The position numbers were made by a program, and so were the translations under genes. Of a stretch of DNA of 64,000 bases, positions 18,160-48,244 are shown one piece after another. The notes beneath the pieces were generated by a model. The model was not told the DNA's origin and did not search any database. It saw nothing but the letters and a program-made list of their open reading frames with translations. Source of the stretch: an uncultured SAR86 cluster bacterium (lineage in GTDB: Bacteria > Pseudomonadota > Gammaproteobacteria > Magnimaribacterales > D2472); contig CACEAP010000004.1 in assembly GCA_902557645.1 (NCBI GenBank), positions 11,803 to 75,802 on the forward strand. The letters are read 5' to 3'. Every line of letters starts with the position of its first letter. Position 1 is the stretch's first letter.

Positions 18160-18235
18160 TTACAAAATTATAGTCTAGTAGTCATGAAAAATAGACATCA
18201 AATTCAAATGCTTTAAAATAGCCAGTCTTAGCGTT

Positions 18236-18325: not shown

Positions 18326-18326
18326 G

Positions 18327-20341: not shown

Positions 20342-20342
20342 T

Positions 20343-21223: not shown

Positions 21224-22546
21224 TTAGTTACTAATTCCTGAATATAACAATGCTCTTAATTCTTCTCTTAAAGGATATTTATTTGAAGGCATGTATTGTG
21301 TCATTAAAACTGCTGTGATGTTCTTTTCCTGATCAATCCAAAAAGTTGTACTAGCTGCACCACCCCAAAAAAATTCACCATCTGAACCATAAACGCCAGC
21401 TTGACCAGCATCCTCAACAACTCCAACAGTAAGACCAAATCCAAGTCCTGAGACACCAAAAGAAACTGCTTCAGATCTATCTAAGTCAAGATGATTTCTA
21501 GACATTAATTCTACTGATGCTTCACTTAGAATTCTTACGCCATTAAGTTCACCATTATTTAAAAGCATTTCAGAAAATAAACTATAGTCATCAATAGAAG
21601 AAACTAATCCAGAGCCACCATCATACAAACTACTTGAATCTTTTAAGTACGGAGATTTATTAAAAGGGTCAATAGATCTTAAGCTTTTTGAAAATTCTAC
21701 GTCTGCATAATTTGCACCAATTTGACCTACTGGCTCCCCATCTCTTCTATACATGCCTGAGGTGTATAAGGTTGTAAAAGAAGCCTTTTCAGAAGGTTTC
21801 ACAGAAAAACCCGTACTATTCATATTTAAAGGTTTAAATATATTTTTTTCTAAATAATCTGCAAATGACATACCGGTAATAACTTCAACAACACAACCTA
21901 AAACATCCATATTGATACCATATGACCATTTTTCACCTGGATTATGAAGTAAAGGTGCTGATGCTGCTAAAGCTGCAAATTGACAGGTATCACCAGGGAA
22001 TTTTGAAATCTCTGAATCAAGAGCGCCAAAAAAATATGGACGTATATTAAATTTCCTGTACATCTGATGCACTGGTCCCTCACCTGCCCAGCTATAAGTT
22101 AATCCACTTGTATGAGTTAATAAGTCTCTAATAGTTACTTCACGCTTTGGTTTAACAACATAATCATCAAAATCTAAATTAAGAACTTTAGTTTGTTTAA
22201 ATGCAGGAATATATTCTGAGACCTTATCATTTAATCGTAATTTACCAGTTTCAATTAATTGCATAATAGCAACACCTGTAACTGGTTTAGTCATAGAATA
22301 AATTCTATATATAGTATTTTTATCTGCAGGTTTTTTAGAAGCCACATCAGCATAACCGTATACATGTCTAAAGATTTCATTATTATCTTGTTTAACTAAA
22401 ATAGATACATTCGGTATCTTTCCTTCATCAACATAAGAATTAAAATGATCAACTATTCTTTGTTGATCATTATCATCAAGTGATAAAGCTGATAATGATG
22501 TTGAAATTAAAAATGTACCTAGCACTAAAACCTGTATAACTCGCAT
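21224..22546 (-). CDS. secreted serine hydrolase, beta-lactamase/esterase (class C-like) family
   Basis: Signal peptide, an SxxK motif (YSMTKP), and LLTHTSGL typical of the family. Confidence 0.85.
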   Translation of the reverse strand: MRVIQVLVLGTFLISTSLSALSLDDNDQQRIVDHFNSYVDEGKIPNVSILVKQDNNEIFRHVYGYADVASKKPADKNTIYRIYSMTKPVTGVAIMQLIETGKLRLNDKVSEYIPAFKQTKVLNLDFDDYVVKPKREVTIRDLLTHTSGLTYSWAGEGPVHQMYRKFNIRPYFFGALDSEISKFPGDTCQFAALAASAPLLHNPGEKWSYGINMDVLGCVVEVITGMSFADYLEKNIFKPLNMNSTGFSVKPSEKASFTTLYTSGMYRRDGEPVGQIGANYADVEFSKSLRSIDPFNKSPYLKDSSSLYDGGSGLVSSIDDYSLFSEMLLNNGELNGVRILSEASVELMSRNHLDLDRSEAVSFGVSGLGFGLTVGVVEDAGQAGVYGSDGEFFWGGAASTTFWIDQEKNITAVLMTQYMPSNKYPLREELRALLYSGISN

Positions 22547-22633: not shown

Positions 22634-24595
22634 CTAATGTTTTAAATTCTTTGCAAGATCACCTAAGTATGGTTCGAAATTCTTCCAGTAATCTAACCCT
22701 TCTTTATAAATTGGCTGCCTTACCTGTTCTGCGCTTGGAGTTTTAACTGCTCTTTTTGATTTATAGAACTCAATGCAGTTTTGTTCAAAAGGTAATTCAC
22801 AATAATCTAGTATTCTTCTAACTTGATTATCAAGATCAGCAACTAAATCTTCATATTGAACTGATAATATTTTATTTGGCAACACTTTATTCCAATGATC
22901 CATTAATTCAACATAATCATTATAGTAAGAAGCTAAATCTTCAAGACCATAAGTAAATTCCTGACCTTCAGCAAATAATTGCTTGTAACATGAAAAACAA
23001 CCAGCCATTGAGTTCCTTCTTATATCAATAATTTTTGCATTTGGCAGTATTAAATGTATTAAGCCAATATGCCTAAAATTGTTTGGCATCTTATCTATAA
23101 AATAGGGTTTATCAGTTCTAAAAACCTCAGAATCATTTATATAATTCTCTCCAATTACTTTTAATTGCGGCTCAGATAAACTTAAAAGAATATCTGGATA
23201 TCTTGACTCTTCATCTTGAGCTTTTCTAAGGTTAAGCTTGTGCGCTATTGCTAAAATATTAGGAAGTTCATGTGTACCCTCAACCATAGAATGAGACGCT
23301 AAGATTTGCTCTGTTAAAGTTGATCCAGCACGTGGAAGTCCTAAAATAAAGATTGGATCTTTTGCATCACAACCCCAGTCTTTTTTTATAGAAAATAAAT
23401 CTTCGGTACAAACACTTATTTGATTTTTACATTCTTCTGAAAAATTTTTATTACTATAGGAAGAATTTGATTTTTGATACTCATTACCAGATTTATAAAA
23501 ATTAAATGACTCCTTGTATTTACCCATATCCTCATATGCTTTGCCTAAAGAAAAATACATAAAGACCTTTTCTTCATCTGGAACAAATTCGTCATTAACC
23601 ATCTCTTGTAAAGATTTAATTTGCTTTTCATCAAATTTATATGTTTTAAGATTAGCAAGACTCCAGTATGCGTCACCAAAATATTTATCCATGCTAAAAG
23701 CGCTGGTGTAAGACTCTATAGATTTTTCTATTTGGCCATCAGTTTTATATAAATGACCCATGGTTAACATAACATCAGTATTTCTAGGCTCTATTTCAAG
23801 AACTGTCTCAAATAAATTAATAGATTCATCATATATATCTGCTCTAAATAAAGTTGTAGCATAAAGCTTCATAGCGACAAGCTCTTCTGGATTAGTTTCA
23901 TAAAGCTCTTTGGCTGTTTTTAGTGCAAGTCCGTACTTTTGCCTTCTTAATAAAGTTGTAATGTAGTCATGCTTGACCTTGATATTATTAGGGTCAAAAA
24001 CTAAACAACTTTCTAGTAGAAATTCTGCATCTTCAAAAATATATAACTCTAGGGCAATTTTTGCTAATAAGCGCATTGCTTCAACATCATGAGGTTTGCG
24101 TTGTAAATAATCTCTACAGATATGATCTGCTTTAGCTAATTTTCCCTCATTGGTATAACTTAAAACAGTTTTAAGTTCAGGTGGAAGATTTTTTAGGTAA
24201 TAGATATTTTCATCACACATATCTAAAAGCTTTTCATTGCCATCAGCTAACTTAATAATGGATAGCCATGAAGCATGTAATGAGTCATTTAATCTAACAG
24301 CTCTTAAAAATGCTCTCAGAGCTTTCTTTTCATCTTTTTTAATAGAATAAATATAACCAAGCTCTTGATAAGCTCTAGCATAATTTGGAAAGAATTTAAT
24401 AAGCTCGTTTAAGGCTAGATGAGCATTAGTATTATCTTTTAAGTATCTATAACAAACGGCTTTAAAATAATAAAAATCTCTTTTGCTTACTTGTACATCT
24501 TTTTTATCAAGCGCATGAAGAGCTTCTTTGAATTGCCCACCTGCTACAAGATTTTGTATTTCGGTAGTAGTTACTGTTGAAATATTTTCCGACAA
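22634..24595 (-). CDS. TPR-repeat sulfotransferase family protein (copy A)
   Basis: About 400 aa of TPR-like repeats, then a sulfotransferase domain. The domain has the 5'-PSB-like GLPRAGSTLTEQIL, a 3'-PB-like IDIRRNSMAGCFSCYKQ, and C-terminal KTPSAEQVRQPIYKEGLDYWKNF. TTG start with AAGGA upstream. No signal peptide. Confidence 0.85.
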   Translation of the reverse strand: MSENISTVTTTEIQNLVAGGQFKEALHALDKKDVQVSKRDFYYFKAVCYRYLKDNTNAHLALNELIKFFPNYARAYQELGYIYSIKKDEKKALRAFLRAVRLNDSLHASWLSIIKLADGNEKLLDMCDENIYYLKNLPPELKTVLSYTNEGKLAKADHICRDYLQRKPHDVEAMRLLAKIALELYIFEDAEFLLESCLVFDPNNIKVKHDYITTLLRRQKYGLALKTAKELYETNPEELVAMKLYATTLFRADIYDESINLFETVLEIEPRNTDVMLTMGHLYKTDGQIEKSIESYTSAFSMDKYFGDAYWSLANLKTYKFDEKQIKSLQEMVNDEFVPDEEKVFMYFSLGKAYEDMGKYKESFNFYKSGNEYQKSNSSYSNKNFSEECKNQISVCTEDLFSIKKDWGCDAKDPIFILGLPRAGSTLTEQILASHSMVEGTHELPNILAIAHKLNLRKAQDEESRYPDILLSLSEPQLKVIGENYINDSEVFRTDKPYFIDKMPNNFRHIGLIHLILPNAKIIDIRRNSMAGCFSCYKQLFAEGQEFTYGLEDLASYYNDYVELMDHWNKVLPNKILSVQYEDLVADLDNQVRRILDYCELPFEQNCIEFYKSKRAVKTPSAEQVRQPIYKEGLDYWKNFEPYLGDLAKNLKH

Positions 24596-24627
24596 AGTTT
24601 AATCCTTTTATTATCAATTGATAATAT

Positions 24628-24656
24628 AAAAAAAAGGGTGCTAATGCACCCTTTTT
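24628..24656 (-). terminator. rho-independent terminator after TBDR 24670..27117
   Basis: Stem GGGTGC/GCACCC with loop TAAT, flanked by A8 and T5. This gives a T8 run after the hairpin on the minus strand. Confidence 0.65.
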
Positions 24657-24669
24657 AAATTTTAGTCTA

Positions 24670-27117
24670 TTAGAATTTTAATGAGACTCTTAAGCCCATA
24701 TTTCTAGGACGATTGGTTGATATTCTTGGAATATCATCCTGATCATTGAAATATAATTGAGCTCTTTCATCAGTTAGGTTTCTAATAAAGAATTCCCAAT
24801 CTGCTCCGTTCATCTCAAATCCATAAGCAAAATCAACAATTCGATATGCATCTTGTTCATATCGCTTGTCAGCTTCTAATGAGCTGTATGACTCGCCTGC
24901 ACTTTTAATTGCAAACTGCGCATATGCTGGATTACCCATAAATTCAGAATCACGTCTTGCTCTAACATTCCACTGTAAGTCAGGCGCTAATGGTAATGCG
25001 CTTCCTACAGGAGCAATTTCAACGATCTGAGCTTTAAGTCTAGTAACTTCAGTATCATTTGAAGAAAGAGCTGCTTGCACAGTCCATTTTTCATTTTCAG
25101 GATACCAAAGAATATCAGCCTCTATACCACTCACATCAGCATCAGCTGCATTCTCGATAAAGGTTAGGATAGACACGTTAACAGGATCAAATCTTGATAC
25201 CTGAATATCAGTCCACTCAACGTTATACCATGTAGCATTAAGTCTTAATGATCCATCCATTAACATTGTCTTAAGACCTATTTCAGTATTAACAGTATCG
25301 TCAGATCCATATGTTAAAGGTGGAGACTGGAAGTCAGGGTTAGCAGGTGCTAGTAAACCACCTCTATTCCATCCACCAGGTCTAAAGCCTTCAGATCGTG
25401 TAAAGTACCATAAAGTATCATCATCTGGCTTATAGCTAGCTGTGAATTTAGTAACAGTATCACTCTGATTAAGAAGATCAGTTCCATGAACTCCAGCATC
25501 ATAATCTCTTCCATTAGATACATTTGATCCTCTATAACCAAATTTAGATTGGCCTCTAAAGTCAATATCCATATCATACTTTCGCATTCCAACCATGAAA
25601 TCTAGTTTGTCAGTAACTGGGAAAGTAACTTCACCAAAGAATGAAGTTTGTTCTTCAGTTCTAAGGATGTCGTTATAGAACCTCGTAGTAATTGGTCTAC
25701 ATGAAGGATCTCGAGCCCAAGCTCCTGGAATAGGACAGTTAACTTGATATGGAGCATATGAATCTCCACCCTCAGGTGAAGCAGCACCATTATAGTTATA
25801 CTCGTTAATAGTTTTTAGAATACTTTCATCGATGAAGACACCAGCAGTGTATGAGAAAGGAAGCTCACTCATTTCATTTGAAGCAATTCTAAATTCATGT
25901 GTAGTTCTCTCATTCTGATCATCTAGAACAACTAACACATCAGCATTACCACAAGCACTATATGAAGGTGATGTGGCTGAAGCATAATTACAGATGTAAT
26001 AAGGCAACCAGTTACCAACATTTCCATATCCACTGTAGTCAACAAGTTGATTTACCTGTCTATCTAGATATGAACCTGTATATAGAACATCTAAAGTTCC
26101 CATTCTTCCTTCTAAAGTCATAGAAGTTTGGGTGAAAGCATCCTCTAATGTATCAGGCTGGAATCTTTTAACCTCAAGATCTCCAACTGCTGGATCATAA
26201 TCAAATACACCATCAGCATTAATTTCTTGATCAATATGAGTAATAAGAAGATCCCAATTATCATTTAAAGTCATTGCAGATGACAATCTGAAACCTTGAT
26301 ATGAAGAGTCATTAAAATCATCTTCAACCAAAGATGCATTATCAATTTCTGTATAAGTTGTGTCTGGTCCAGGATATGAAGGACTCATTGGTGACAATGA
26401 AAGTGTTCCAGGAACATTATCAATATAACCACCTAAATCAGATCTATAGAATACACCTCTAACAGCCCAAACATCATCAATCATTGGAATATTCACAAAA
26501 GCATCAAAGGAATTCGATGCTGATCCTTCAGATGTTCCAAAAATGCTAGCATTAATACCAGCCTCTGATTCGTTATATTTTGGCTTATTAGTTATAAGTC
26601 TTACTGTGCCAGCTTGAGAACTTGCTCCGTAAAGTGTTCCTTGTGGTCCAGGCAGTACTTCGATACGCTCCATATCTGCAACGTAAATATCTAAGTTTCT
26701 TCCTGGAACGGTGACTGGCTGTTCATCTAAATATAAAGCTACGTTAGGAGTGGATCCCTGAGCAGCAGATAAGAATACATTAACTGGATCTACAGCCATG
26801 CCTCTTATATATATTGTTGATTGACCAGGTCCTCGACCACCATTTGTAACATTTGGTAAATATTCAATATATTCATCAAAGTTAGAGACATTCATCTCAT
26901 CAAGATCATCTCCGGTCAGCGCAGTAACAGTAACTGGAACATCAGAAGCATTTTCTTCCTTCTTTTGTGCAGAAACCACGATTTCTTCAATAACACGCTC
27001 TTGAGAAAAACCTGTCTGCGGCATTACTGCTGCAACTGTTCCAAGTACCCCTAAAGCTACGTTAGTTTTCATATTTGAAATATACTCTTTCGAATATAAG
27101 TCGGTTATATTTTTCAT
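24670..27117 (-). CDS. TonB-dependent receptor (copy A of the module)
   Basis: TonB-box/plug region EEIVVSAQKKEE, IEVLPGPQGTLYGASSQAGTVRLITNKP, YLDEQPV, and a C-terminal beta-barrel ending ...GLRVSLKF (terminal Phe). Strong SD AAGGGAG lies before the ATG at 27117. Confidence 0.9.
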   Translation of the reverse strand: MKNITDLYSKEYISNMKTNVALGVLGTVAAVMPQTGFSQERVIEEIVVSAQKKEENASDVPVTVTALTGDDLDEMNVSNFDEYIEYLPNVTNGGRGPGQSTIYIRGMAVDPVNVFLSAAQGSTPNVALYLDEQPVTVPGRNLDIYVADMERIEVLPGPQGTLYGASSQAGTVRLITNKPKYNESEAGINASIFGTSEGSASNSFDAFVNIPMIDDVWAVRGVFYRSDLGGYIDNVPGTLSLSPMSPSYPGPDTTYTEIDNASLVEDDFNDSSYQGFRLSSAMTLNDNWDLLITHIDQEINADGVFDYDPAVGDLEVKRFQPDTLEDAFTQTSMTLEGRMGTLDVLYTGSYLDRQVNQLVDYSGYGNVGNWLPYYICNYASATSPSYSACGNADVLVVLDDQNERTTHEFRIASNEMSELPFSYTAGVFIDESILKTINEYNYNGAASPEGGDSYAPYQVNCPIPGAWARDPSCRPITTRFYNDILRTEEQTSFFGEVTFPVTDKLDFMVGMRKYDMDIDFRGQSKFGYRGSNVSNGRDYDAGVHGTDLLNQSDTVTKFTASYKPDDDTLWYFTRSEGFRPGGWNRGGLLAPANPDFQSPPLTYGSDDTVNTEIGLKTMLMDGSLRLNATWYNVEWTDIQVSRFDPVNVSILTFIENAADADVSGIEADILWYPENEKWTVQAALSSNDTEVTRLKAQIVEIAPVGSALPLAPDLQWNVRARRDSEFMGNPAYAQFAIKSAGESYSSLEADKRYEQDAYRIVDFAYGFEMNGADWEFFIRNLTDERAQLYFNDQDDIPRISTNRPRNMGLRVSLKF

Positions 27118-27168
27118 ATCAGCTCCCTTTAGGAAATTACTAATTTGTAAATAAGATCGACTTTTTAA

Positions 27169-27188
27169 ATCTAGGTTTAAACCTAGAT
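27169..27188. repeat. perfect 20-bp palindrome ATCTAGGTTTAAACCTAGAT in the TBDR/BCCT divergent intergenic region (candidate operator or leader hairpin)
   Basis: Read directly: 10+10 nt with no spacer and no mismatch, 52 nt upstream of the TBDR start codon. Confidence 0.5.
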
Positions 27189-27380
27189 ACCCCCCTGGGA
27201 AGTTTAGCTTGTTTATAGACTAGCAATTTCATTAAATTAGTCTTGAAACGACTATAACATTCAATAAAATTAATTCAAGTTTTTACATATAATCAATAAA
27301 TGTAAAAAATGCATATTTTTTTCATAATTTTCACTAAATTAGTTATAGTGAATGCACTCTTTTATTAAATAGATAACAAA

Positions 27381-28895
27381 ATGCAAAATATTAGCAAATC
27401 TAGGTTTTTATTATCCGTTTCACTTATTCTTTTAATTACAGGAATGGTTTCTGCAAATTCCGATGTTTCAGAAGCTTTATTTCTGCAATTACAAGCTTTT
27501 TTATCTAATTATTTTGGATGGATGATTATAATCCTTGCAAATGGTTTTTTAATATTTTCAATCTATCTTTTATTTACAAAATATAAAAATATTAGACTTG
27601 GTGGTGCTGATGCCAAGCCCTCATATACATATATAAACTGGATTGCTATGCTTTTTAGCGCTGGTTTAGGTATTGGATTACTTTTTTATGGAGTAGCTGA
27701 GCCAGTTATGCATATGAATTCATATCCAGGAATGATTGATGGAGATAATTCATATAATGCAGGCAAAGCAATTAATTTAGCAAATCTGCATTGGGGCCTT
27801 CATGGGTGGGCTATCTATTCATCATTAGGTTTGTGTTTTGCATTTGCTTCTTATAATAAAAAGTTACCTTTTAGAGTTAGCTCACTGCTTGGTGAAAAAG
27901 TTTCAACTAATAAGCCTCTAGCTATTTTGATTGATGTTATTGCAATACTTACAACTGTTTTTGGTATAACAACATCATTAGGTCTTGGCGCTATGCAAAT
28001 AAGTGCAGGCATGTCTCATATTTTTGGAATAGAAGAATCCTTCACTAATTACGTTTATATAATAATAGTTATAACTCTTTTAGGCTTAACTAGTGTTTCA
28101 TTAGGATTAAATGCTGGAATTAAAAAACTCTCACAGATTAATATGATTATTGCAAGTGGATTGCTTTTTTTAGTATTCGCATTAGGCCCTACTGTATTTA
28201 TTCTTAATGCTTTAGTTCAAAATTTTGGAGCTTATTTAAATTCATTAATTCAATCAGCAACATGGACAGAAGCATATGATTCAACAGCATGGCAAGATGG
28301 TTGGACCTTATTTTATTTTACCTGGTGGTTTGCCTGGGCTCCATTTGTATCTTTGTTTATTGCAAGAATATCTTATGGAAGAACAATCAAAGAATTTATA
28401 ATAGGTGTTTTGTTTGTGCCTTCTTTAATAGTGTTTTTATGGATGGGAGTTTTTGGCAATGCTGCGATTTATCAAGTTATAAATAATACCAGCGAAATTA
28501 GTCAAATTGTTGCAAATAATATGAATGTTGCGCTATTTACTTTATATGATGTTTATCCCTTAGCTCAACCATTATCAATTGTTTCATTAATATTAATAGT
28601 TACCTTTTTTGTAACATCATCAGACTCAGGTGCATTGGTAGCATCAATGCTATCTTCTAAAGAGCAGACTGACATCAACGATGATTCACCAATTCTATCA
28701 AGGGTAACTTGGGCAATATTATTGGGTATAGTAGCAGCTGTGTTACTTTATGCAGGTGGGCTGACTGCACTTCAAACTTCAGTGGTGATTACAGGTGTTC
28801 CTTTTGCAATTATTGTAGGATTTGCTTGCTTGAATTTATTAAGAGGATTGAAAGAATTAGATGATGCGCCACCAAGACATATAAACTCCGATTAG
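27381..28895 (+). CDS. BCCT family transporter (copy A)
   Basis: BCCT signature WTLFYFTWWFAWAPFVSLFIARISYGRTIKEF; 504 aa, 12 TM pattern. Confidence 0.9.
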   Translation: MQNISKSRFLLSVSLILLITGMVSANSDVSEALFLQLQAFLSNYFGWMIIILANGFLIFSIYLLFTKYKNIRLGGADAKPSYTYINWIAMLFSAGLGIGLLFYGVAEPVMHMNSYPGMIDGDNSYNAGKAINLANLHWGLHGWAIYSSLGLCFAFASYNKKLPFRVSSLLGEKVSTNKPLAILIDVIAILTTVFGITTSLGLGAMQISAGMSHIFGIEESFTNYVYIIIVITLLGLTSVSLGLNAGIKKLSQINMIIASGLLFLVFALGPTVFILNALVQNFGAYLNSLIQSATWTEAYDSTAWQDGWTLFYFTWWFAWAPFVSLFIARISYGRTIKEFIIGVLFVPSLIVFLWMGVFGNAAIYQVINNTSEISQIVANNMNVALFTLYDVYPLAQPLSIVSLILIVTFFVTSSDSGALVASMLSSKEQTDINDDSPILSRVTWAILLGIVAAVLLYAGGLTALQTSVVITGVPFAIIVGFACLNLLRGLKELDDAPPRHINSD

Positions 28896-31314: not shown

Positions 31315-31374
31315 AAACAAATATTAATTAAATGTTATATTTATTTATATAATTTAAATAAATAAAGGTCCTGA

Positions 31375-32574: not shown

Positions 32575-32582
32575 GTGTAAAT

Positions 32583-33359: not shown

Positions 33360-33402
33360 ATAAGTATTGAAAGATATTTTAAAATTATGTTAATTTAAAT
33401 AA

Positions 33403-39705: not shown

Positions 39706-40377
39706 CTAAACATTCCGATTAAATTGAATTATTTTTTGTTTCCACTTATTTGTAAAAAAATCAAATTCATGGCCTTTAATTGTAAATTCCTTGAATATTA
39801 AATCTCTATCAATCATTAAAATTACAACTTGTTTAATATTTGTACTAAACATTACATTATGTGCATTTGCATAAGCGCAACCCTGAAGAAAATAATCCTC
39901 TATCCATTCACGGCGTTTAATTCGTTTTGCAGTTTTAAAATCAATAATTGATGGCACACCTTTTACTAAACCAACACAATCAGCCGTGCCGGCATACAAA
40001 CCATCAAGTATAAGACCAACCTCAAGACCCCAAGCTTCGTCTATAGAATTAAGTCCATCTGTTATGAATTTGTTAGTAATACTTTTTGCTATAAGGTCTG
40101 TTCTTTTTTCTGAAAAATTATCCCATTCATTGCCATTTAGATATTCTTCAATAGCCTCATGAACTGCTGACCCAATATCAGTGCTTTCCTTAACCACCCT
40201 CTCAGCTTCTTTTTCTCCAACCCGCTTTTTCCAATCTTCGATTCCTTTTTTAGAAGAAGTACCTGATAATATTGTAGTAACGCTAGGAACTGGGGTCCCA
40301 GTAGAATCTATATAATGACGACCTCTATCGAGATCAACTCTCTCCAAGGTTGGATATTGATATTTATTAGAAATCAT
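39706..40377 (-). CDS. RecB-like PD-(D/E)XK nuclease family protein
   Basis: N-terminal HY.....G...PSVTTIL. Nuclease core GTADCVG-x13-IIDFKTAKR (D...D-x-K) followed by a QxxxY motif (FLQGCAY). No Fe-S Cys cluster. Confidence 0.7.
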   Translation of the reverse strand: MISNKYQYPTLERVDLDRGRHYIDSTGTPVPSVTTILSGTSSKKGIEDWKKRVGEKEAERVVKESTDIGSAVHEAIEEYLNGNEWDNFSEKRTDLIAKSITNKFITDGLNSIDEAWGLEVGLILDGLYAGTADCVGLVKGVPSIIDFKTAKRIKRREWIEDYFLQGCAYANAHNVMFSTNIKQVVILMIDRDLIFKEFTIKGHEFDFFTNKWKQKIIQFNRNV

Positions 40378-42347
40378 TTTTCAATATGCTCATCAAATAA
40401 TTTTTCCAGGGGTAAAAGATCATTTTCAAAATTTTTCCAATAATCTAGACCAGATTTATATATGGGTTGTCTAACTTGCTCTGCACTTGGTGTCTTAACA
40501 GGTCTTTTAGATTTATAAAATTCAAAACACTCTTTTTCAAAAGGAAGATTGCAATATTGAAGCAGTTTTATTATTTCATTTTCAGTATCTGAGACCATAT
40601 TTGCATACTTTACTGTGTAAATTTGATTTGGATAAATACTATGCCAATGATCCATAATATTTATATAGTCATTGTAAAATAATCCTAAGTCCTCTAGATC
40701 GTATGTAAAAAGCTGTCCTTTTGCAAAAAACTGTTTAAAACAGCTAAAACAAGTATCCATAGCTCCTCTGCGTGTATCTATAATCTTGGCATTAGGTAAT
40801 ATAGTTTTTATAAATCCAATATGCATAAAATTATTAGGCATTTTATCTATAAAGAATGGCGCATCGCCCCTACTCCATCTAGTTTGATCAATATATTTAT
40901 TACCCAGCTCTGATATTTGCATTTCTGATAATTTCTTTAAGAAACTAGGATATGCCTCTTTGTTTTTTCCTATTGCTTCAACTTCTCTTGATAGATTCAT
41001 AATGTTAGGCAGTTCTTGAGTTCCATCTACCATCGAATGAGATGAAATAATTTGATCAATTAAGGTTGATCCAGACCTTGGTAATCCCAAAATAAAAATT
41101 GGATCTGGATCATTACACTTTGATTTTTTTATCTTCTTAACTACATCTTTGTTAAAAAACTCAATACTTTTATTTACTCTGTCTGAATTTTCTTGAGATG
41201 AATATTTAATTAATTTTCTTTTAATCCAATTGCCTTCACTGTACATTTTAAAAGATTGCTTAAAATCTTTTTTTACCTCAAAGGCTTTACCCAATGCAAA
41301 TAGTAGCTGAACCTTTTCATTTTCAGAAATATCATTTGATAAAGTTTTTTGCATCTCTTCAATCTGCTTTGATGAAAATTCATATGTTTTTAAGTTAGCT
41401 AAACTCCAATAAGCTTCGCCAGAATTAGGATTATATTTAACAGCATTTATATATGACTCAACTGACTTTTCATTATTTCCAATAGTATTGTATGCATGTC
41501 CTAAACTTAAATAGGCCCTTGGACTATCTGGCTGGAGTGATACACATCTTGAGTATGCGACTATGGCTTCTTTATAACGAGCCATCATAATTAAAATAGT
41601 TCCATAATCGGCCCAAACGCTTGCATTTTTTGGATCTAATGCAAGTATATTATCCATAGATTTTTGTGCTTTATCTAATTGGCCAGACAATCTGTAAACA
41701 AGAGATATATTGCGCCATAAGAGACTATAAGACGGTGCTAGTTTAATGGCTTTTATTAGAAGCTGTTCTGCAATTTTATACTTACCCCCTTTGGTAGCTA
41801 AAATTCCTAATAACCTTAAAGCATCGACGTTTTCTGGATCTTCTTTTAATATATTTGTATAAACTTCTTCTGCTAACTTTACCCTTCCAGCTTTTGCATG
41901 TCTTATTCCTTTATATAAATTTGAATAGGTGGTATTTCTTTCTAGAAATTCTTGAATAACATCATCAGCCTCTTCTTCTTTATCCAGTTCTACCAAAATA
42001 TTACTCAATTGTCGTAAAAGAGAAATATCAGGTTTAACATTTAATAGGTCTTTAAATTTTTTACAGGCTTCATATTTTTTATTTTGAAATAAAAGAATTT
42101 GAATTTCTTTCTCCAAGAGTTCGGTACTCTTTGGATTAATACTCAGTCCTTTTTGAATATAAATAAGAGCTTCAGATGGATCATTTTGCTTTATTGAAAT
42201 ATCAATAATTAAAACAATAGAATTTAGCTCATTTGGAAAAATCTTTAATATCTCTAATAATTGAGCTTTAGCTAGAGATAACTTATTATCATTAATTAAA
42301 TCAATTGCATTTTCGTAGGCATTTTTAGGAGAATCTAAATCTTTCAT
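40374..42347 (-). CDS. TPR-repeat sulfotransferase family protein (copy B)
   Basis: TPR repeats, then GLPRSGSTLIDQII, IDTRRGAMDTCFSCFKQ and KTPSAEQVRQPIYKSGLDYWKNF. Its stop overlaps the nuclease start (ATGA). Confidence 0.85.
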   Translation of the reverse strand: MKDLDSPKNAYENAIDLINDNKLSLAKAQLLEILKIFPNELNSIVLIIDISIKQNDPSEALIYIQKGLSINPKSTELLEKEIQILLFQNKKYEACKKFKDLLNVKPDISLLRQLSNILVELDKEEEADDVIQEFLERNTTYSNLYKGIRHAKAGRVKLAEEVYTNILKEDPENVDALRLLGILATKGGKYKIAEQLLIKAIKLAPSYSLLWRNISLVYRLSGQLDKAQKSMDNILALDPKNASVWADYGTILIMMARYKEAIVAYSRCVSLQPDSPRAYLSLGHAYNTIGNNEKSVESYINAVKYNPNSGEAYWSLANLKTYEFSSKQIEEMQKTLSNDISENEKVQLLFALGKAFEVKKDFKQSFKMYSEGNWIKRKLIKYSSQENSDRVNKSIEFFNKDVVKKIKKSKCNDPDPIFILGLPRSGSTLIDQIISSHSMVDGTQELPNIMNLSREVEAIGKNKEAYPSFLKKLSEMQISELGNKYIDQTRWSRGDAPFFIDKMPNNFMHIGFIKTILPNAKIIDTRRGAMDTCFSCFKQFFAKGQLFTYDLEDLGLFYNDYINIMDHWHSIYPNQIYTVKYANMVSDTENEIIKLLQYCNLPFEKECFEFYKSKRPVKTPSAEQVRQPIYKSGLDYWKNFENDLLPLEKLFDEHIEK

Positions 42348-42425: not shown

Positions 42426-43838
42426 ATGTGTGTGTATGCGATTAGCGATCCAGCAACAACTGCATCACAATTATCTAATATATATAGCATTGTTGCTTTA
42501 AAGTTTGAGACTGTTTTTCAATATGGTGCTTTGGTAATTTTACTATTTTTATTATTACTAGCATTTAGTAAAGCTGGATCTAAAAAAGTTAGTATTGCTA
42601 GCTCTCCTAAATATTCATTCTTCTCTTGGTCATCAATGTTATTTGCCTCAGGTATGGGAGCTACTATTTTATATTGGTCACCGATTGAATGGTCCGCATA
42701 CTACAATGACCCCCCTTTTAATCTTGAGGTCGGATCAATTGAAGCAGTTAGAACTATAAATGCATATACCTCTTTTCACTGGGGATTTAGTGGCTGGGCA
42801 ATATATGCTTTACCAGCTGTAGCCTTTGCAATATCAATTACAAAAAACCCCACATCTTCATTAACCTTTGGATCGCTTTTAGTAAGTGATAATTTGCCTT
42901 TTAGTTATTTTTTTAAAACTATACTTGATATTTTTTTTATATTTGGAATTCTTGCTGGCGCTGGCGTTGGACTTGGTCTTTCATTTCCACTAATTGCTGA
43001 AATTGTTGCTACATTTCTAGGAATATCTTCTTCATTGGCCCTAGAGTTAATAATTCTTTTGATCTGCTTGTTCATAATTACCACTAGTGCATATTTAGGC
43101 ATAACTAAAGGCATAAAAAGACTAAGTAATATTAATATTGGGCTTTTAGGTCTCTTATTAATTTTTGTTCTTGTCGCAGGCCCAACAACATTTATTCTAT
43201 TTAATAGTCTTGATGTCTTATTGGTATACGGTACTAAATTCATACAAATGAGTACTTATGTTGGTGATAAGTTTGTACAGGACTGGACAGTGTTTTATTG
43301 GGCGTGGTGGCTGGCACTCGCACCTTATCTTGGTGTATTTTTTGTAAATATCTCAAATGGGAGAACTCTAAAAGAGTTGATTCTTGGAACAATTCTTATT
43401 GGTGGTTTTGGTTCGGTAATACATTTTTTAATACTAGGTAATTATTCTCTTCACTTATTTGAAAACAGTATTTTAAATGTCCCAGACCTATATGCATCAG
43501 AGAAGCCTACAAAGGTAATTGTAGATGTAATACTTACTCTCCCAATGAGTTACTTAATTTTATTTTTATATGGATTAATATCTATCATTTTCTTATGTAC
43601 TACCTATGATTCGTGTGCTTTCATCCTCTCACGTACTGCTATGAGAAGATCAGATATTTCACCCTCTAAAATTCTAAGAATAATATTTTCTATATTATTG
43701 GTTATTCAGCCTGCAATTCTTATGTATCTTGGAGGTGTTAATACTGTAAAATGGATGCTTGTAATTAGTGCTATTCCACTAATTTTTATTAACGTTTTAT
43801 TAATTGGTTATATTATTAAAAATGTACAAAAAATCTAA
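42426..43838 (+). CDS. BCCT family transporter (copy B); true start possibly upstream of the first ATG
   Basis: BCCT signature WTVFYWAWWLALAPYLGVFFVNISNGRTLKEL. The open frame continues upstream to 42339 and encodes a TM1-like segment without a canonical start codon. Confidence 0.8.
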   Translation: MCVYAISDPATTASQLSNIYSIVALKFETVFQYGALVILLFLLLLAFSKAGSKKVSIASSPKYSFFSWSSMLFASGMGATILYWSPIEWSAYYNDPPFNLEVGSIEAVRTINAYTSFHWGFSGWAIYALPAVAFAISITKNPTSSLTFGSLLVSDNLPFSYFFKTILDIFFIFGILAGAGVGLGLSFPLIAEIVATFLGISSSLALELIILLICLFIITTSAYLGITKGIKRLSNINIGLLGLLLIFVLVAGPTTFILFNSLDVLLVYGTKFIQMSTYVGDKFVQDWTVFYWAWWLALAPYLGVFFVNISNGRTLKELILGTILIGGFGSVIHFLILGNYSLHLFENSILNVPDLYASEKPTKVIVDVILTLPMSYLILFLYGLISIIFLCTTYDSCAFILSRTAMRRSDISPSKILRIIFSILLVIQPAILMYLGGVNTVKWMLVISAIPLIFINVLLIGYIIKNVQKI

Positions 43839-44700
43839 TAACTCTAATTATTATTTACATAATTTTTCTTCTTTAGACTATTCGAAAGATTCATTATTAT
43901 TTATACCTGGTGCGGGAATGGATCATAGAATTGTAAAAGACATAAAACTTGATTCGAATAAGTTTAATAACACTCTAGCAATTGATACTCCTCATCATGG
44001 ATACTCAACTGGACCAAAACTTACATCAATTGAGGAATATGCAGAAGGAATTGAGGAAGTTCTTAAAGAGATTGATATAAGTAAATTTCATCTATGTGGG
44101 CATAGTATGGGTGGATTAATAGCTTTAAGAATAGCTTTTAATAAGAAATTAAAGTTTAAATCTATCAATATACTTAATGCCTCTTGTCCAATGTTTGTTG
44201 GTTCAGCTTTATTAGATGATTCTAGAAAAAATTTAGACTCTGCAATGAATATGCTTACAACATACGGAGTAAGTAAAGCACCAAAAGCGAAAGCTAGTGG
44301 CCCAATGTTTGGAACTATGGGTTCCGGATTTTATCAAAAAAAGTCTGATTTAATTAATACTCCATACGGAAGTAAAAAAATTGTTGATAAGTTAGATGAT
44401 GAGGTTGATTTGTATGCTTTAAAGAAACTTTTTAATCAAATAACAAAAGACATCTTAAATAATGATCTAAATGCCTGTAAAAACTTTGTTATTCCTGATT
44501 CTGAGATTAATGAATATAAAGACACAATAAATTTTATCTTAGGTGAAAAAGACAACTTAACTCCAGTAAAGTATGCACAAAAATTTTGTGAGAATTTAAA
44601 AAGTTCACAAATTGTAATTATTGAAGAATTGGGCCATTTCACTTTCTATGAAGACCCTACCAAGCTCTCAAGCGAGCTTGGTAAGTTATTGTCTAGTTAG
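43822..44700 (+). CDS. alpha/beta hydrolase
   Basis: GHSMGG nucleophile elbow and a C-terminal ELGHF histidine region. The track start at 43804 is TTG; the first ATG is 43822. Either start overlaps the BCCT 3' end. Confidence 0.75.
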   Translation: MYKKSNNSNYYLHNFSSLDYSKDSLLFIPGAGMDHRIVKDIKLDSNKFNNTLAIDTPHHGYSTGPKLTSIEEYAEGIEEVLKEIDISKFHLCGHSMGGLIALRIAFNKKLKFKSINILNASCPMFVGSALLDDSRKNLDSAMNMLTTYGVSKAPKAKASGPMFGTMGSGFYQKKSDLINTPYGSKKIVDKLDDEVDLYALKKLFNQITKDILNNDLNACKNFVIPDSEINEYKDTINFILGEKDNLTPVKYAQKFCENLKSSQIVIIEELGHFTFYEDPTKLSSELGKLLSS

Positions 44701-44703
44701 ATA

Positions 44704-47097
44704 TTAGAATCTATATCTTAGTCTAAGCCCTATAGTTCTAGGCTTACTTCCTGTTCTTCTAACATCGCCAAAGTCATCATATATACCAAGAGTAGGATCA
44801 GCATCATGAACATTTTCAAGGTAGACCTCTAGAGAAGCATTTTGAAGAAATCCTAGCACATCATCAACATCAGAACTTCCTTTGCTAGAAGGATTAACTC
44901 CAAACCTAAGATTTGCTAATGAGTATGATGCATTCGTATCTGTATTAGCAGATGACTGATAACTTTCTCCAGTATAAGAATGATCATAACTAACATATGC
45001 ATCTCTATTTCTAATAACAAAGTCTTTATTCATTGACATTACGAATTGCTCAGTTGGCACATAGGCTAATTGATTACCTTTTGGTGTTGACAGCTGTCCT
45101 TGAAGATCATATATATCTTCTTTAAATTCTGGATCAGTTAAAGCTAGCATTAATGAGGCACTAAAGCTATCTGAGATATTAAAATAACTCTCAAGCTCTA
45201 ATCCTGATATTGTTGCTTGTCCAACATTTTGAACAAATGCCACTGTTAGTAAATCATATATGTAACTAGTAGATTGGAAATCATCCCAGTTCATAGTGTG
45301 AAGATTACCATTTAGGACAATTTTTCCATCAGCTAAGGTAGATTTAAATCCTGCTTCAAAATTAGTCAAGGTATCTGAATCATATGTTGCAGGTACTATT
45401 CCTGATTCACGCGCCTGTCTGTTTAATCTGTTTGTTCCACTTGGTCTAAAGCCTTCAGAGTAGGTAGCGTAAAGCAATACATCATCATTTAACTTATGCG
45501 CTATATTTATTTTGGGTGAAACATCAGAGAAATCTTTTGTATACTTCTCAGTTCTTCCAGCTGCCCAAGATAAAATTGGGTGATCTTGATAGTATCCCAT
45601 GTATCCATCTTTAGCATCAAAATTAGCTTCATTTTTATATGCGCGCATACCAACAGTTAGGTCTGTTTTATCACTAAGCGGCCAAGTAGCTTCACCAAAA
45701 ATAGCTTTTTGGCTATCTTCTCTTACATTATCTTGTTTCCACCATCTGCCAGGCACTGAAGTAAGAATATTTGAAATAGCAGGCATATTGTAAGTAGTGG
45801 AATATGCTAATTCTTGATCTTCAATAAAGACACCTAAAATCCATCTAAATCCTGAATCATTTGTTGATTGCATTCTAAATTCAGTACTTTGTCTATCATA
45901 CTGATCATTTTCAACATAGAACATACGTGCATCAGTGGAAGCATAATAATCATAGTCATATGCGTATGCAGAGTATGAATCATAGTAGTTTGTATAAACA
46001 TAATTAGTATAGTCATACGTATAATCTATTTCACGATCAAATATTGATGTGTTAAATGTAAATTCGACATCATCTGATAAATTACCATTAATAGTTAAAG
46101 ATGTTTGAGTGAACTCATCGTCAAAGGTTTCATCAGCAAATCTAGAATTTTTTCTAGCTCCCTCTGCTACATCTGTTTCCCATGATCCGTTTGAAAAAGA
46201 TTCATGACTTAAAAAAGATAGATCTATAGTTGTTCCACTATCCATATCATGGCCTAAACGAACTCTATGACCAGATTTATCTATCCAGTTGTAGTCATCC
46301 TCGACATAGCTACTATTATCAATCGTAGCACCAGTGTAGTAGAAACTTACAGTCGAAGGAACATTATCGATCCAACCGCCATTACTAATGTCATAGGCAC
46401 TAATTCTTAAAGCAGTATTTGTTCCAAGTGGTATATTAACGAAAGTTTCAAGCGACTCATCGGTAGAACCATCATGAATATCACCACGCTCTATATCAAA
46501 ACCTGCTTCAAAGCCAGATGGATCAGGTTTATTTGTAATAATCCTCACTGTTCCAGATTGAGATGAGGATCCGTATAGAGTTCCTTGAGGTCCTTTTAGA
46601 ATCTCAACTCTATTTATGTCATAAATATGAGGATCTGGATTTCCACCAATAGTTGATACAGGCTGCTCATCTATATAATAAGCAGTAGAAGCTTGAGCTC
46701 CTGCTCTATTGCCAAAACCGCCATCAGAGACACCTCTAATATAGAAATATGAATTTCCTGTTCCGCTTGAATCCAATGTAATAGATGGGGATAAAGCAGC
46801 AATGTCATCAAAATCAGTAATATTTTTAGCTTCTAATTCCTCTGCACTAATTGCCTGAACAGCCATAGGAAGATCTTGAATATTAGTAGCTCTTTTTGAA
46901 GCTGTAACTATTATTTCCTCAACGCTTGAGTCAGCCTCCTCGGCATTAAGAGTATTTGTCTGGGAAAAACCAAGACCTATAGATAAAGCACCTAAATATG
47001 ACATTGCATATTTATTGTCTTTAAAGATATCTCTTAAAAGTAAAGTTAACGGATCTGCTTTCTTTTCAAACAGAGGTTTAAGTAAAAAATTGTTCAT
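44704..47097 (-). CDS. TonB-dependent receptor (copy B of the module)
   Basis: EEIIVTASKR, VEILKGPQGTLYGSSSQSGTVRIITNKP, YIDEQPV, C-terminal ...GLRLRYRF. SD AGGGGGA lies 4 nt before the ATG at 47097. Confidence 0.9.
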   Translation of the reverse strand: MNNFLLKPLFEKKADPLTLLLRDIFKDNKYAMSYLGALSIGLGFSQTNTLNAEEADSSVEEIIVTASKRATNIQDLPMAVQAISAEELEAKNITDFDDIAALSPSITLDSSGTGNSYFYIRGVSDGGFGNRAGAQASTAYYIDEQPVSTIGGNPDPHIYDINRVEILKGPQGTLYGSSSQSGTVRIITNKPDPSGFEAGFDIERGDIHDGSTDESLETFVNIPLGTNTALRISAYDISNGGWIDNVPSTVSFYYTGATIDNSSYVEDDYNWIDKSGHRVRLGHDMDSGTTIDLSFLSHESFSNGSWETDVAEGARKNSRFADETFDDEFTQTSLTINGNLSDDVEFTFNTSIFDREIDYTYDYTNYVYTNYYDSYSAYAYDYDYYASTDARMFYVENDQYDRQSTEFRMQSTNDSGFRWILGVFIEDQELAYSTTYNMPAISNILTSVPGRWWKQDNVREDSQKAIFGEATWPLSDKTDLTVGMRAYKNEANFDAKDGYMGYYQDHPILSWAAGRTEKYTKDFSDVSPKINIAHKLNDDVLLYATYSEGFRPSGTNRLNRQARESGIVPATYDSDTLTNFEAGFKSTLADGKIVLNGNLHTMNWDDFQSTSYIYDLLTVAFVQNVGQATISGLELESYFNISDSFSASLMLALTDPEFKEDIYDLQGQLSTPKGNQLAYVPTEQFVMSMNKDFVIRNRDAYVSYDHSYTGESYQSSANTDTNASYSLANLRFGVNPSSKGSSDVDDVLGFLQNASLEVYLENVHDADPTLGIYDDFGDVRRTGSKPRTIGLRLRYRF

Positions 47098-47215: not shown

Positions 47216-48244
47216 TTACTGATCAAATAGTCTATTTAAAAGATATTTTGAACCTTCTATCTTATCAATTTCTCTGCATTCATTATAGATAATTTCCGAT
47301 TGAATATTAGCTCTGCAGTAACCCTCATTTGATGTGATTCCGGGCCATGCGTGACCAGCTTCTGAATTAATAATTGCAGTTATAGTTACGTCATTATCAC
47401 AATTATAGTAAATAGTCTCTGAAGACCTAAAAGGTGAAGTTATTTTAGAGCTTTTAATATTTTTACAATTAAATTTTGAAGACCAAGAAGATGTGGTATT
47501 TTTAATAGGCTCATAATAATAACCACCTGAAGATTTAATTGATATTGGTGGAACTGATTTATCAAGTAAACCCCCATAAATTATAAGATTTATAGGTGAT
47601 TCAGGTACGCAGCTTAGTTTATGTGGCTGCATACCAACCACATTGATAACTCCATCAAAAATATCAGAGTATTTGCAACCGATTAATTGAGCCATCATGC
47701 CGCCATTACTAAGGCCCATAACATAACTTTTATCAACCGAGAACTCTTCATAAATTTTTAGGGTTATAGTTTTTATAAAATCTAAATCATTAACACAGCT
47801 TGTCCAATAACAAGAGTTTTGATTACTGCAACTTGGAAATGGAAGAGCGCTTTGTGAGTTATCTTCACATATTTTTACTTCTTTATTATTCTTAATTAAT
47901 GGTCCCAGATGATTCCATGAACTTGAATATACTGTTTGGGTTATTTTGGAACCATCTTGTGTTTGCATTTCATAGCTTGGATAAAAATACTTGCCCTGTG
48001 GATATACAACAATCAACCCTTGTTCTTCAGCATAACGATTAAAGCCACCAGTTGTTTCTTTTTCAAATCCAGATGCAGATCCTGAGAATCCATGCAGTCC
48101 TATAACTAATTTATAAGATTCTTTTTTAACAGTAGGTAAAAAGAGAAGATATGAACGCTCTTCACCAGCATGATTAACATTAACTCTTTCCATGCTATTT
48201 ATCACTGGAGCAAAGATTAATAATACATAGAAAAAAAATTTCAT
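47216..48244 (-). CDS. secreted PHB-depolymerase-family esterase (LpqC/feruloyl-esterase-like)
   Basis: Signal peptide, GLHGFSGSASGF, nucleophile GLSNGGMMA, and several Cys pairs. Confidence 0.75.
   Translation of the reverse strand: MKFFFYVLLIFAPVINSMERVNVNHAGEERSYLLFLPTVKKESYKLVIGLHGFSGSASGFEKETTGGFNRYAEEQGLIVVYPQGKYFYPSYEMQTQDGSKITQTVYSSSWNHLGPLIKNNKEVKICEDNSQSALPFPSCSNQNSCYWTSCVNDLDFIKTITLKIYEEFSVDKSYVMGLSNGGMMAQLIGCKYSDIFDGVINVVGMQPHKLSCVPESPINLIIYGGLLDKSVPPISIKSSGGYYYEPIKNTTSSWSSKFNCKNIKSSKITSPFRSSETIYYNCDNDVTITAIINSEAGHAWPGITSNEGYCRANIQSEIIYNECREIDKIEGSKYLLNRLFDQ

Follow-up and report, generated by a model that had tools for sequence, protein, structure and literature searches.

A 64-kb stretch of SAR86 DNA (G+C about 0.30–0.35, about 32%), called the window below, carries two sets of genes, A and B, each with a TonB-dependent receptor (TBDR), a sulfotransferase (ST) with tetratricopeptide repeats (TPRs) and a carrier of the BCCT family. 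Our data show that the conserved unit within these sets is the pair of TBDR and TPR-ST, which is widespread in Proteobacteria and occurs in either gene order. As to its role we favour, still tentatively and with a little less than even confidence, a cytoplasmic protein sulfotransferase whose target is the surface protein encoded beside it, modified ahead of export; in the TBDR the candidate site is the Tyr-rich loop 4. Window proteins were assigned to families by Pfam and NCBIfam profile matches, and a check of open reading frames (ORFs) in the window found all six genes of the two sets:

22634..24595, minus strand: ST-A, cytoplasmic TPR-sulfotransferase, 653 aa; Sulfotransfer_3 (PF13469, E 2e-46) and TPR families
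24670..27117, minus strand: TBDR-A, TonB-dependent receptor, 815 aa; Plug domain (E 3e-17)
27381..28895, plus strand: BCCT-A, betaine/choline-type inner-membrane carrier, 504 aa, divergent from TBDR-A; PF02028 (E 2e-161)
40374..42347, minus strand: ST-B, second TPR-sulfotransferase, 657 aa; PF13469 (E 4e-43)
42426..43838, plus strand: BCCT-B, carrier, 470 aa, 78 bp from the ST-B start; PF02028 (E 6e-105)
44704..47097, minus strand: TBDR-B, TonB-dependent receptor, 797 aa; Pfam Plug (E 6e-18) and barrel

A preliminary description of the sequence had picked out the first three genes as a group and had seen the same families again, in a different order, at 40374–47097; ORFs and Pfam families bear out both groups. 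The observation is confirmed, and the interpretation offered with it is partly supported, as discussed below.

Related loci come from two scans of 80 loci each, in which genes were called with a codon-position G+C filter and family searches, and neighbours were clustered all-against-all. The scan with ST-A, limited to one genome per species, gave 114 ST genes (L001–L080; 19 loci from SAR86, the rest from Sphingomonadales, Steroidobacteraceae, Rhodanobacter/Dyella, Woeseiaceae, Planctobacterium and others), and its homologues from outside SAR86 are 40–46% identical to ST-A over the full length. The metagenome scan with ST-B gave 86 ST genes (L081–L160), with 7 close orthologues and 73 distant relatives at 35–42% identity. 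The locus most closely related to the window, from a SAR86 single-cell assembly, has 89% protein identity. In the first scan 82 of the 114 ST genes directly follow a TBDR gene on their own strand, with a median spacer of 71 bp; 17 others follow another ST (TBDR>ST>ST), 3 face a divergent TBDR, 7 have a different neighbour and 5 are at contig ends. In the second scan the order is mostly reversed, the same-strand TBDR coming after the ST in 53/86 cases and before it in 10/86. Adjacency to a TBDR is cheap within the window itself, since at least four TBDR-type genes lie in its 64 kb (those outside the two sets at 36159–38960 and 52715–55756). Across the loci it is far beyond chance, as even in TBDR-rich genomes such receptors make up, by our estimate, ~1–2% of genes. 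Neighbour clustering of the 160 loci gave no third widely shared family near the pair, be it an inner-membrane transporter, a regulator or PAPS (3′-phosphoadenosine 5′-phosphosulfate) synthesis, and this, with the non-chance adjacency, defines the pair in either order as the conserved unit. The proposal that the triad is a functional unit thus holds to the extent that the SAR86 neighbourhood is not random and is found in all sampled clades, and fails in that the conserved unit, TBDR plus TPR-ST, does not include the BCCT. A third pair (TBDR > ~530-aa ST > Peptidase_S51) sits just upstream of the copy A set in other SAR86 clades (first 4 kb of L006, L008–L013, L016 and L034), so SAR86 genomes hold at least three TBDR-ST pairs.

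What surrounds the pair varies widely and includes a phn C-P lyase operon, MTTB/SoxB/GMC/ALDH genes, an alpha-glucosidase with LacI, or a BCCT with esterases. The same pair standing beside such different genes argues that the enzyme serves the receptor and not one substrate. In Rhodanobacter/Dyella loci (L041, L043, L048, L051, L058, L066, L071 and others) it directly follows, on the same strand, a phn C-P lyase operon with GntR, PhnJ, ABC ATPases and a PhnM-like amidohydrolase, which suggests a receptor for phosphonates. Some soil loci have an MTTB-family methyltransferase and sarcosine oxidase beta (above the NCBIfam cut-off), and some have GMC (choline-dehydrogenase-like) and betaine-aldehyde-dehydrogenase-like ALDH genes near the pair; these hint at a methylated-amine theme, which we regard as a lead, not a result. 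An enolase-superfamily neighbour looks like a sugar-acid dehydratase.

ST-A consists of ~12 TPR-like helix pairs, a conserved linker (WSLANLKTYKF) and a PAPS domain resembling that of tyrosylprotein sulfotransferases (TPSTs; residues about 411–653). Its AlphaFold2 (AF2) model (pLDDT 83.8, pTM 0.78) likewise has ~12 helix pairs followed by an alpha/beta domain. Foldseek placed the TPR domain of OGT and SPINDLY at the top; as all 50 top matches of the whole model were driven by the TPRs and gave no sulfotransferase fold, a sequence-level comparison with TPSTs was used instead. Sequence matches of ST-A in the PDB are TPST1 (E 5e-8), TPST2 and plant TPST (about 6e-5), CurM ST (7e-5) and an olefin-synthase sulfotransferase. 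The 5′-phosphosulfate-binding (5′-PSB) loop, GLPRAGSTL in ST-A and GLPRSGSTL in ST-B, aligns with GVPRSGTTL of TPST1/2, and the Arg/Ser motif for 3′-phosphate binding (3′-PB) IIDIRRNSMAGCFS aligns with LLMVRDGRASVHS, the ST motif being IRRNSMAGCFS. The active-site Lys of FIDKMPNNF aligns with that of CNKDPF, and a Glu after the P-loop (VEGTHE), conserved family-wide, falls on CGEETR; the roles given to these residues are those of TPST2. At the C-terminus the TPST motif S-x-x-QV-x-xP is represented by TPSAEQVRQPIYKEGLDYW, aligned with RSTDQVIKPVNLEALSKW of TPST2, and the segment TPSAEQVRQPIY...W matches RSTDQVIKPV...W of the same enzyme; this part of ST-A (residues 614–632) has low confidence in the AF2 model. 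Among 168 homologues the 5′-PSB, Lys, 3′-PB and C-terminal motifs are each conserved at 90% or more. The concern, raised in the preliminary description, that PAPS-binding residues might be missing is not borne out by this alignment, in which all PAPS-binding and catalytic motifs are kept. Judged from the sequence, ST-A and ST-B have a TPR array like that of OGT, followed by a TPST-like PAPS-sulfotransferase domain that is intact, and the predicted reaction is sulfate transfer from PAPS to a peptidyl tyrosine.

The two halves of the enzyme differ strongly in conservation: among the same homologues 93 of 243 columns of the catalytic domain are conserved at 90% or more versus 21 of the first 300 residues, which are TPR. 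A uniform catalytic domain with variable TPRs fits constant acceptor chemistry and a variable recognition surface. Calling the enzymes cytoplasmic is reasonable, as neither ST-A nor ST-B has a signal peptide, and a crude search was positive for 3 of 166 homologues. The TPR-ST family is large: the linker and ST domain retrieved 10,997 cluster representatives (50% identity) at E≤1e-30. Giant proteins of 1,000–2,800 aa (P0241, P0243, P0283 and others) have two to seven linker and sulfotransferase modules and are tandem TPR-ST fusions.

On the side of the receptor, the AF2 model of TBDR-A has 22 long barrel strands joined by alternating short turns and long loops (barrel pLDDT 70–89, plug poor). 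The Pfam barrel domain was matched in TBDR-B and not in TBDR-A, both proteins end in Phe, and PDB sequence matches cover the plug only. No named substrate class applies to either receptor, all NCBIfam matches being far below their cut-offs (best TIGR01783, 105 versus 223.5). The long connection between strands 7 and 8 of the model (residues 342–360 and 393–413) contains the segment that we call loop 4:

25942..26040, minus strand: predicted extracellular loop 4 of TBDR-A, residues 360–392; signature DY[ST]xY...YYxC...(variable)...C
45943..46032, minus strand: loop 4 equivalent of TBDR-B, EIDYTYDYTNYVYTNYYDSYSAYAYDYDYY; 13 Tyr and 6 Asp in 30 residues, no Cys

The motif DY[ST]xY...(Y/F)YxC...(5–45 variable residues)...C is present in 71/71 full-length ST-linked TBDRs of the first locus set, and in 91% of 127 ST-linked TBDRs no other stretch of 30 aa is as rich in Tyr as loop 4. 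The version in TBDR-B (DYTYDYTNYVYTNYYDSYSAYAYDYDYY) is Cys-free and rich in Tyr and Asp; it is kept in orthologues at 87–99% identity, and similar Tyr/Asp-rich loops are found in TBDRs downstream of ST-B-like enzymes. Four non-partner TBDRs (two in the window, one each in L032 and L096) lack the motif. The model makes loop 4 of TBDR-A a candidate sulfation or ligand-binding site.

More distant members of the enzyme family, 23–45% identical in the ST region, were surveyed in 18 distinct contexts on annotated plasmids and chromids. The order TBDR>ST recurs in Novosphingobium, Pseudoalteromonas (twice) and Asticcacaulis, and in Komagataeibacter the TBDR is upstream of the ST with smaller genes between. 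The Asticcacaulis plasmid (L164, 1997–8071) reads TBDR > sulfotransferase family 2 > Asp/Asn beta-hydroxylase-domain protein > TPR-ST, next to phnX, and a peptide hydroxylase in this operon suggests hydroxylation followed by sulfation. Autotransporters adjoin TPR-ST homologues in five genera, Enterobacter, Thalassospira, Pacificitalea, Azospirillum and Ralstonia, with the order ST>GT8>autotransporter in Enterobacter sp. 638. On the Ralstonia solanacearum megaplasmid CP023017.1 (L170, 931–8639) an autotransporter (943 aa), a TPR-ST (705 aa), a 372-aa protein without a Pfam match and an APS (adenosine 5′-phosphosulfate) kinase with an N-terminal extension follow each other on one strand; the annotation of this cluster is our own, most of its genes being missing from the gene table of the record. 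Together these genes resemble a complete unit with which a plant pathogen could sulfate its autotransporter. Further neighbours are a porin in Cereibacter and a flagellin in Paroceanicella. In a type I secretion operon of a Comamonas endophytica plasmid (L171, 1–10990) the TPR-ST stands between a giant cadherin-domain adhesin and TolC/ABC/HlyD, and on a Sulfitobacter plasmid (L176) a related sulfotransferase has a type I secretion system and a calcium-binding protein as neighbours. Nothing obvious stands beside the ST in the Hirschia, Roseibium and Methylovirgula contexts. What the neighbours have in common is that a protein bound for the surface or for secretion, by whichever route, is among them. 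Both the TBDR/TPR-ST pairing and the family-wide link to exported proteins appear undescribed in the literature that we searched, where no paper ties a sulfotransferase with TPRs to a TonB-dependent receptor or an autotransporter. The TBDR neighbourhoods in Iyer et al. 2010 are others (SapC, tryptophan halogenase, JmjC), and the sulfotransferases described there come with beta-hydroxylases; the TBDR/TPR-ST pair is not among them.

A cytoplasmic protein sulfotransferase is favoured by the combination of a constant catalytic domain, variable TPRs, a TPST-like site, the pairing with one particular surface protein whatever pathway surrounds it, and one clustered APS kinase. In such a mechanism the TPR array would bind the newly made surface protein encoded next door and the catalytic domain would O-sulfate this client in the cytoplasm before Sec export, most likely on the loop-4 tyrosines, which would give the receptor a strongly anionic, ligand-capturing loop. 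We infer that each set in the window is a SAR86 nutrient-uptake locus built around a TBDR with a dedicated cytoplasmic TPR-sulfotransferase module. Here the receptor may import an ester-linked quaternary-ammonium substrate, for example a betaine lipid or a choline ester, from which periplasmic and cytoplasmic esterases would free the head group; the head group would then pass the inner membrane through the BCCT, whose lineage-specific partner would be the receptor, one step earlier in the pathway, and not the sulfotransferase. Modification of exported proteins by dedicated enzymes has precedents. Aah, TibC and HMW1C glycosylate autotransporters and adhesins. RaxST is reported to sulfate the outer-membrane protein Omp1X (PMC4892823), and FlmG, with an N-terminal TPR domain and a transferase, belongs to a cytoplasmic pathway that O-glycosylates all six flagellins of Caulobacter (PMC7591256). 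A broader version, which we consider possible but somewhat less probable, is that TPR-STs at large form an undescribed system that sulfates surface proteins before export, each enzyme being encoded beside its client and loop-4 sulfotyrosine acting as an anionic trap. The clients would be mostly TBDRs, but also autotransporters, porins, type I secretion adhesins and flagellin, and the trap would suit cationic or quaternary-ammonium substrates, which would explain why BCCT and methylamine-catabolism neighbours recur. In SAR86 and in many Proteobacteria of soil and sea, an entire subfamily of nutrient receptors would then bear sulfotyrosine on loop 4.

It should be noted, however, that several points weigh against the proposed sulfation of the receptor. 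Four non-partner TBDRs are the only negative controls for the loop motif, whose tyrosines may serve structure or ligand binding alone. In the main class these tyrosines have Cys and basic residues close by, a setting not typical of TPST sites. The homologues that adjoin autotransporters, a porin, adhesins or a flagellin are no more than 23–35% identical in the ST region, and the autotransporter passengers beside these distant homologues are rich in Gly, Ser, Thr and Asn, not in Tyr and acidic residues, so the acceptor residue may not be tyrosine. The source of PAPS in SAR86 is a puzzle, given the reported lack of sulfate activation. SAR86 is described as lacking sulfate uptake and assimilation or incorporation (PMC3358033; PMC11582366), in line with the preliminary description. 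There is no PAPS-synthesis gene or APS kinase in the window, no APS kinase in any of the 160 loci, and no cysC/cysN/cysD or sulfotransferase entry in the supplementary tables of Freel et al. In copy B, moreover, the TBDR and the ST are not adjacent, and in copy A a terminator-like hairpin, found by a consensus scan and an inverted-repeat search, separates them:

24631..24656, both strands: symmetric terminator-like hairpin AAAAAGGGTGC-4 nt-GCACCCTTTTT with A5 on one side and T5 on the other, within the 74 bp that separate TBDR-A from ST-A

By its sequence this hairpin is possibly an attenuator that puts receptor expression above enzyme expression.

The BCCT carrier is a regular neighbour of the pair in SAR86 only. 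Layout A (BCCT< TBDR> ST>) was found in 16 SAR86 loci from all sampled clades, at ST identities down to 58%, and layout B (TBDR> hydrolase< BCCT< ST>) in L081–L086 and L015; ST-B orthologues are 78–95% identical in L081–L084 and 49% in L015, all with a divergent BCCT. The co-occurrence expected in the preliminary description is thus SAR86-wide, the BCCT being kept in both sets across clades. Outside SAR86 a BCCT stands near the pair in only 2 of about 135 loci (L080 and L157), by our estimate roughly the chance level in 20-kb windows for a genome with a few BCCT genes. Both of these are from a marine, Alteromonadales-like lineage unrelated to SAR86: Planctobacterium (L080) has MarR< BCCT< TBDR> ST> and L157 has TBDR> BCCT> L-serine dehydratase> ST>, and with receptors 69% identical they represent one lineage with two arrangements. 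The PF02028 match covers nearly the whole model in both carriers of the window. BCCT-A scores 438 bits against TIGR00842, above the cut-off of 407.55, and BCCT-B 320, below it. No substrate equivalog reached its cut-off, either for BCCT-A (betaine NF047988, 476 versus 650; BetT, 404 versus 695) or for BCCT-B (best weak match CaiT, 265 versus 541).

Many SAR86 TBDR regions hold lipid-degrading enzymes, and for TBDR, esterase and a choline/carnitine/betaine transporter together, removal of fatty acids and uptake of the betaine-lipid head group has been proposed; the betaine transporters were also assigned a possible role with dimethylsulfoniopropionate (DMSP) (Dupont et al. 2012, PMC3358033). 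The preliminary description could name no pathway for the trio. For BCCT, TBDR and esterase this is an already known proposal for SAR86, and what remains of the statement is the sulfotransferase, which has no mention in that paper and none in a 2024 isolate-anchored SAR86 study. The published loci share with ours the organism group and the TBDR, esterase-family and BCCT genes, and differ in that a sulfotransferase is unmentioned (PMC3358033). Copy A fits them by its secreted beta-lactamase-fold hydrolase and membrane-anchored alpha/beta hydrolase, copy B by a Hydrolase_4 protein, a secreted PHB-depolymerase-family esterase and a cytoplasmic alpha/beta hydrolase:

18327-21104: ABC ATPase, ABC-2 permease and membrane-anchored alpha/beta hydrolase, after the esterase of the next line
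21224..22546, minus strand: beta-lactamase-fold serine hydrolase/esterase with signal peptide, directly downstream of ST-A; PF00144 (E 6e-65), weak AcmB-like match
43804-44700, plus strand: cytoplasmic alpha/beta hydrolase, overlapping BCCT-B; two-gene operon 42426..44700
47216..49152, minus strand: Hydrolase_4 protein (lysophospholipase-like, no signal peptide) and PHB-depolymerase-family esterase (signal peptide), upstream of TBDR-B

The hydrolase/ABC arrangement downstream of ST-A is kept only in the closest SAR86 relatives (L001–L005). The BCCT-B/hydrolase operon, on the opposite strand, is wedged between TBDR-B and ST-B and makes these two non-adjacent.

ST-A and ST-B are 43% identical over 505 aa, an alignment in which the three peptides quoted in the preliminary description as common to both occur verbatim, and 36% over the trimmed full-length alignment. 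The receptors are 31% identical over their full length and the carriers 31% over 414 aa. ST-A is closer to soil-bacterial homologues (44–46%) than to ST-B, and BCCT-A closer to the L080/L157 carriers (38–41%) than to BCCT-B, which rules out a recent block duplication of the triad. Of the suggested old duplication with linkage kept, the age of the paralogues (31–43% identity) stands, and a simple block duplication does not, given the affinity of ST-A to soil homologues. As the two carriers also fall into different subgroups, the two BCCT associations seem to be either independent of each other or very old; each is stable from one SAR86 clade to the next.

Other explanations of the triad were weighed as well. 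In the preliminary description the receptor and the BCCT import a choline-like hydroxylated onium compound, which the ST O-sulfates for retention, osmoprotection or detoxification. The intact PAPS motifs agree with this, as do the BCCT adjacency in both SAR86 sets, kept across clades and recurring in L080 and L157, and the MTTB, sarcosine oxidase beta, GMC and ALDH genes near the pair in some soil loci. However, neither a BCCT nor any other conserved inner-membrane transporter accompanies most TBDR-ST pairs, and the diverse surroundings of the pair include phosphonate and alpha-glucoside genes. The catalytic domain is uniform, whereas small-molecule sulfotransferases usually vary in their acceptor loops, and an OGT-like TPR array of ~400 aa with TPST-like affinity points to a protein acceptor, as does the pairing of homologues with autotransporters, a porin, type I secretion adhesins and flagellin. 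It would also be unusual for a streamlined genome, reportedly without sulfate activation, to spend PAPS on conjugation in a catabolic locus. For these reasons we disfavour the sulfation of a choline-like import and consider it unlikely. Less doubtful, though still less likely than not, is that the triad is no unit at all, TBDR and ST being a module of their own and the BCCTs mere synteny neighbours for general betaine or DMSP uptake. The near-chance frequency of BCCT outside SAR86 is what this would predict, and the transporter density of the window (at least four TBDR-type genes, two MFS_2, CNT, MatE, ABC), the opposite strand of the BCCT genes and the DMSP role considered for SAR86 betaine transporters (PMC3358033) fit it too. 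What speaks for a real association is that two anciently diverged ST lineages (36%) each immediately adjoin a BCCT of a different subfamily and that both arrangements are kept among SAR86 clades; BCCT-B is co-transcribed with a hydrolase between TBDR-B and ST-B, and the orthologous receptors of L080 and L157 (69%) with differently placed BCCT genes suggest that the association survives rearrangement. A separate BCCT is in any case compatible with the favoured explanation of the TBDR-ST pair.

Two further possibilities concern the enzyme itself. It might act on a peptide or metallophore which, once sulfated and secreted, comes back in through the partner TBDR, in the manner of RaxST/RaxX or MbnS/MbnT. 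Methanobactin operons reportedly co-locate the sulfotransferase MbnS with the TonB-dependent importer MbnT, and so resemble our loci in having a PAPS-type sulfotransferase and a TonB-dependent transporter in one cluster. The methanobactin sulfotransferase, however, modifies a ribosomal peptide made by mbnABC, and our pair has no precursor or maturation genes: no RaxX- or methanobactin-type precursor, exporter or maturation genes were found among the ORFs of 90 aa or more in the window and the 160 loci, and no precursor-peptide, peptidase-ABC exporter or biosynthetic genes are conserved beside the pair. RaxST gives a bacterial precedent for peptide sulfation (PMC4892823), but with spacers of ~71 bp and surrounding genes that are catabolic and variable, we regard a peptide of this kind as very improbable. 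Least probable of all is that the SAR86 enzyme, for want of PAPS, is non-catalytic and works as a TPR chaperone or regulator of the receptor. The reported lack of sulfate incorporation and of an APS kinase nearby would agree with that; yet every motif for PAPS binding and catalysis is retained, under strong conservation, in SAR86 orthologues as low as 58% in identity and in at least three paralogues per genome, which is not expected for a dead enzyme.

A cytoplasmic enzyme that sulfates its surface-protein partner would combine features of several known systems. With TPST1, TPST2 and RaxST ours shares a Sulfotransfer_3-type domain, and with the two TPSTs, its best PDB matches, alignable PAPS and C-terminal motifs. 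TPSTs are Golgi type II membrane proteins without TPRs, and RaxST, which has a single domain, is encoded together with raxX and a peptidase-ABC exporter; our enzyme is cytoplasmic, with a TPR array of ~400 aa fused N-terminally, a TBDR partner gene and a putative Tyr acceptor. OGT, SPINDLY and FlmG have the same N-terminal TPR superhelix and C-terminal transferase, the latter a GT-B glycosyltransferase in contrast to our P-loop sulfotransferase, for which the donor would be PAPS. In Aah/AIDA-I, TibC/TibA and HMW1C/HMW1 the modifier and its exported substrate lie side by side in either order and modification precedes Sec export. Autotransporters likewise stand next to TPR-ST homologues in five genera, a GT8 joining them in one case and an APS kinase in another, but the Aah-type systems add sugars; the literature that we searched has no report of autotransporter or TBDR sulfation. 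To our knowledge bacterial protein sulfation is so far known essentially from one Xanthomonas enzyme. If the ST does sulfate the receptor, sulfation would be widespread among the surface proteins of bacteria, with consequences for ligand capture, phage and colicin recognition, and adhesion. An enzyme dedicated to an entire subfamily of receptors would alter the reading of such loci. The paradox of several conserved PAPS-type enzymes in a lineage reported to lack sulfate activation is sharpened as well. Read conservatively, the TBDR/TPR-ST pairs are strongly conserved and number in the thousands, and no function has been assigned to them.

Downstream of ST-B, in the same operon, follow two further genes:

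39706-40377, minus strand: 223-aa protein, no Pfam or NCBIfam match; its start overlaps the ST-B stop (ATGA), translationally coupled
39016-39705, minus strand: Peptidase_S51 (dipeptidase E/cyanophycinase family)

The order ST-B > 223-aa protein > Peptidase_S51 is also present in L082 and L087. By eye the 223-aa protein has a PD-(D/E)xK-nuclease-like motif (GTAD...IIDFKTAK). Peptidase_S51 recurs downstream of SAR86 pairs, in copy B and in the third pair (e.g. L006, 3112–3810), and in Planctobacterium (L080) it is encoded at 17681–19069, ~6 kb from the pair. The divergent intergenic region between TBDR-A and BCCT-A contains a perfect 20-nt palindrome, ATCTAGGTTTAAACCTAGAT, at 27169–27188. As a shared operator it was rejected, since it occurs once in the window and in 0/160 loci, close SAR86 relatives included. 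A search of the window for known RNAs and riboswitches found tRNA-Ser alone.

The rest of the window is of an ordinary kind for SAR86, with many hydrolases, two MFS_2, CNT, MatE and ABC transporters, and genes of the serS, ftsK and trpS type. A separate TBDR locus (30760–38960, plus strand) encodes a nitroreductase, a beta-lactamase-fold hydrolase, an SDR protein, two secreted amidohydrolases and a 933-aa TBDR, which has neither the loop-4 signature nor a sulfotransferase. At 52715–55756 (minus strand) lies a gene for a 1013-aa outer-membrane protein with CarboxypepD_reg and an OMP_b-brl_4 barrel (Oar-like TonB-dependent type), next to a 2OG-Fe(II) oxygenase and the CNT nucleoside transporter. 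A 632-aa ORF with a TTG start at 13271–15169 (minus strand) matched no Pfam or NCBIfam family. Finally, at 16394–17269 (minus strand), adjoining a GFA-family protein, a member of the eukaryotic-type dimethylarginine dimethylaminohydrolase family (PF19420, E 4e-67) is encoded, a further enzyme for methylated nitrogen compounds in the region.

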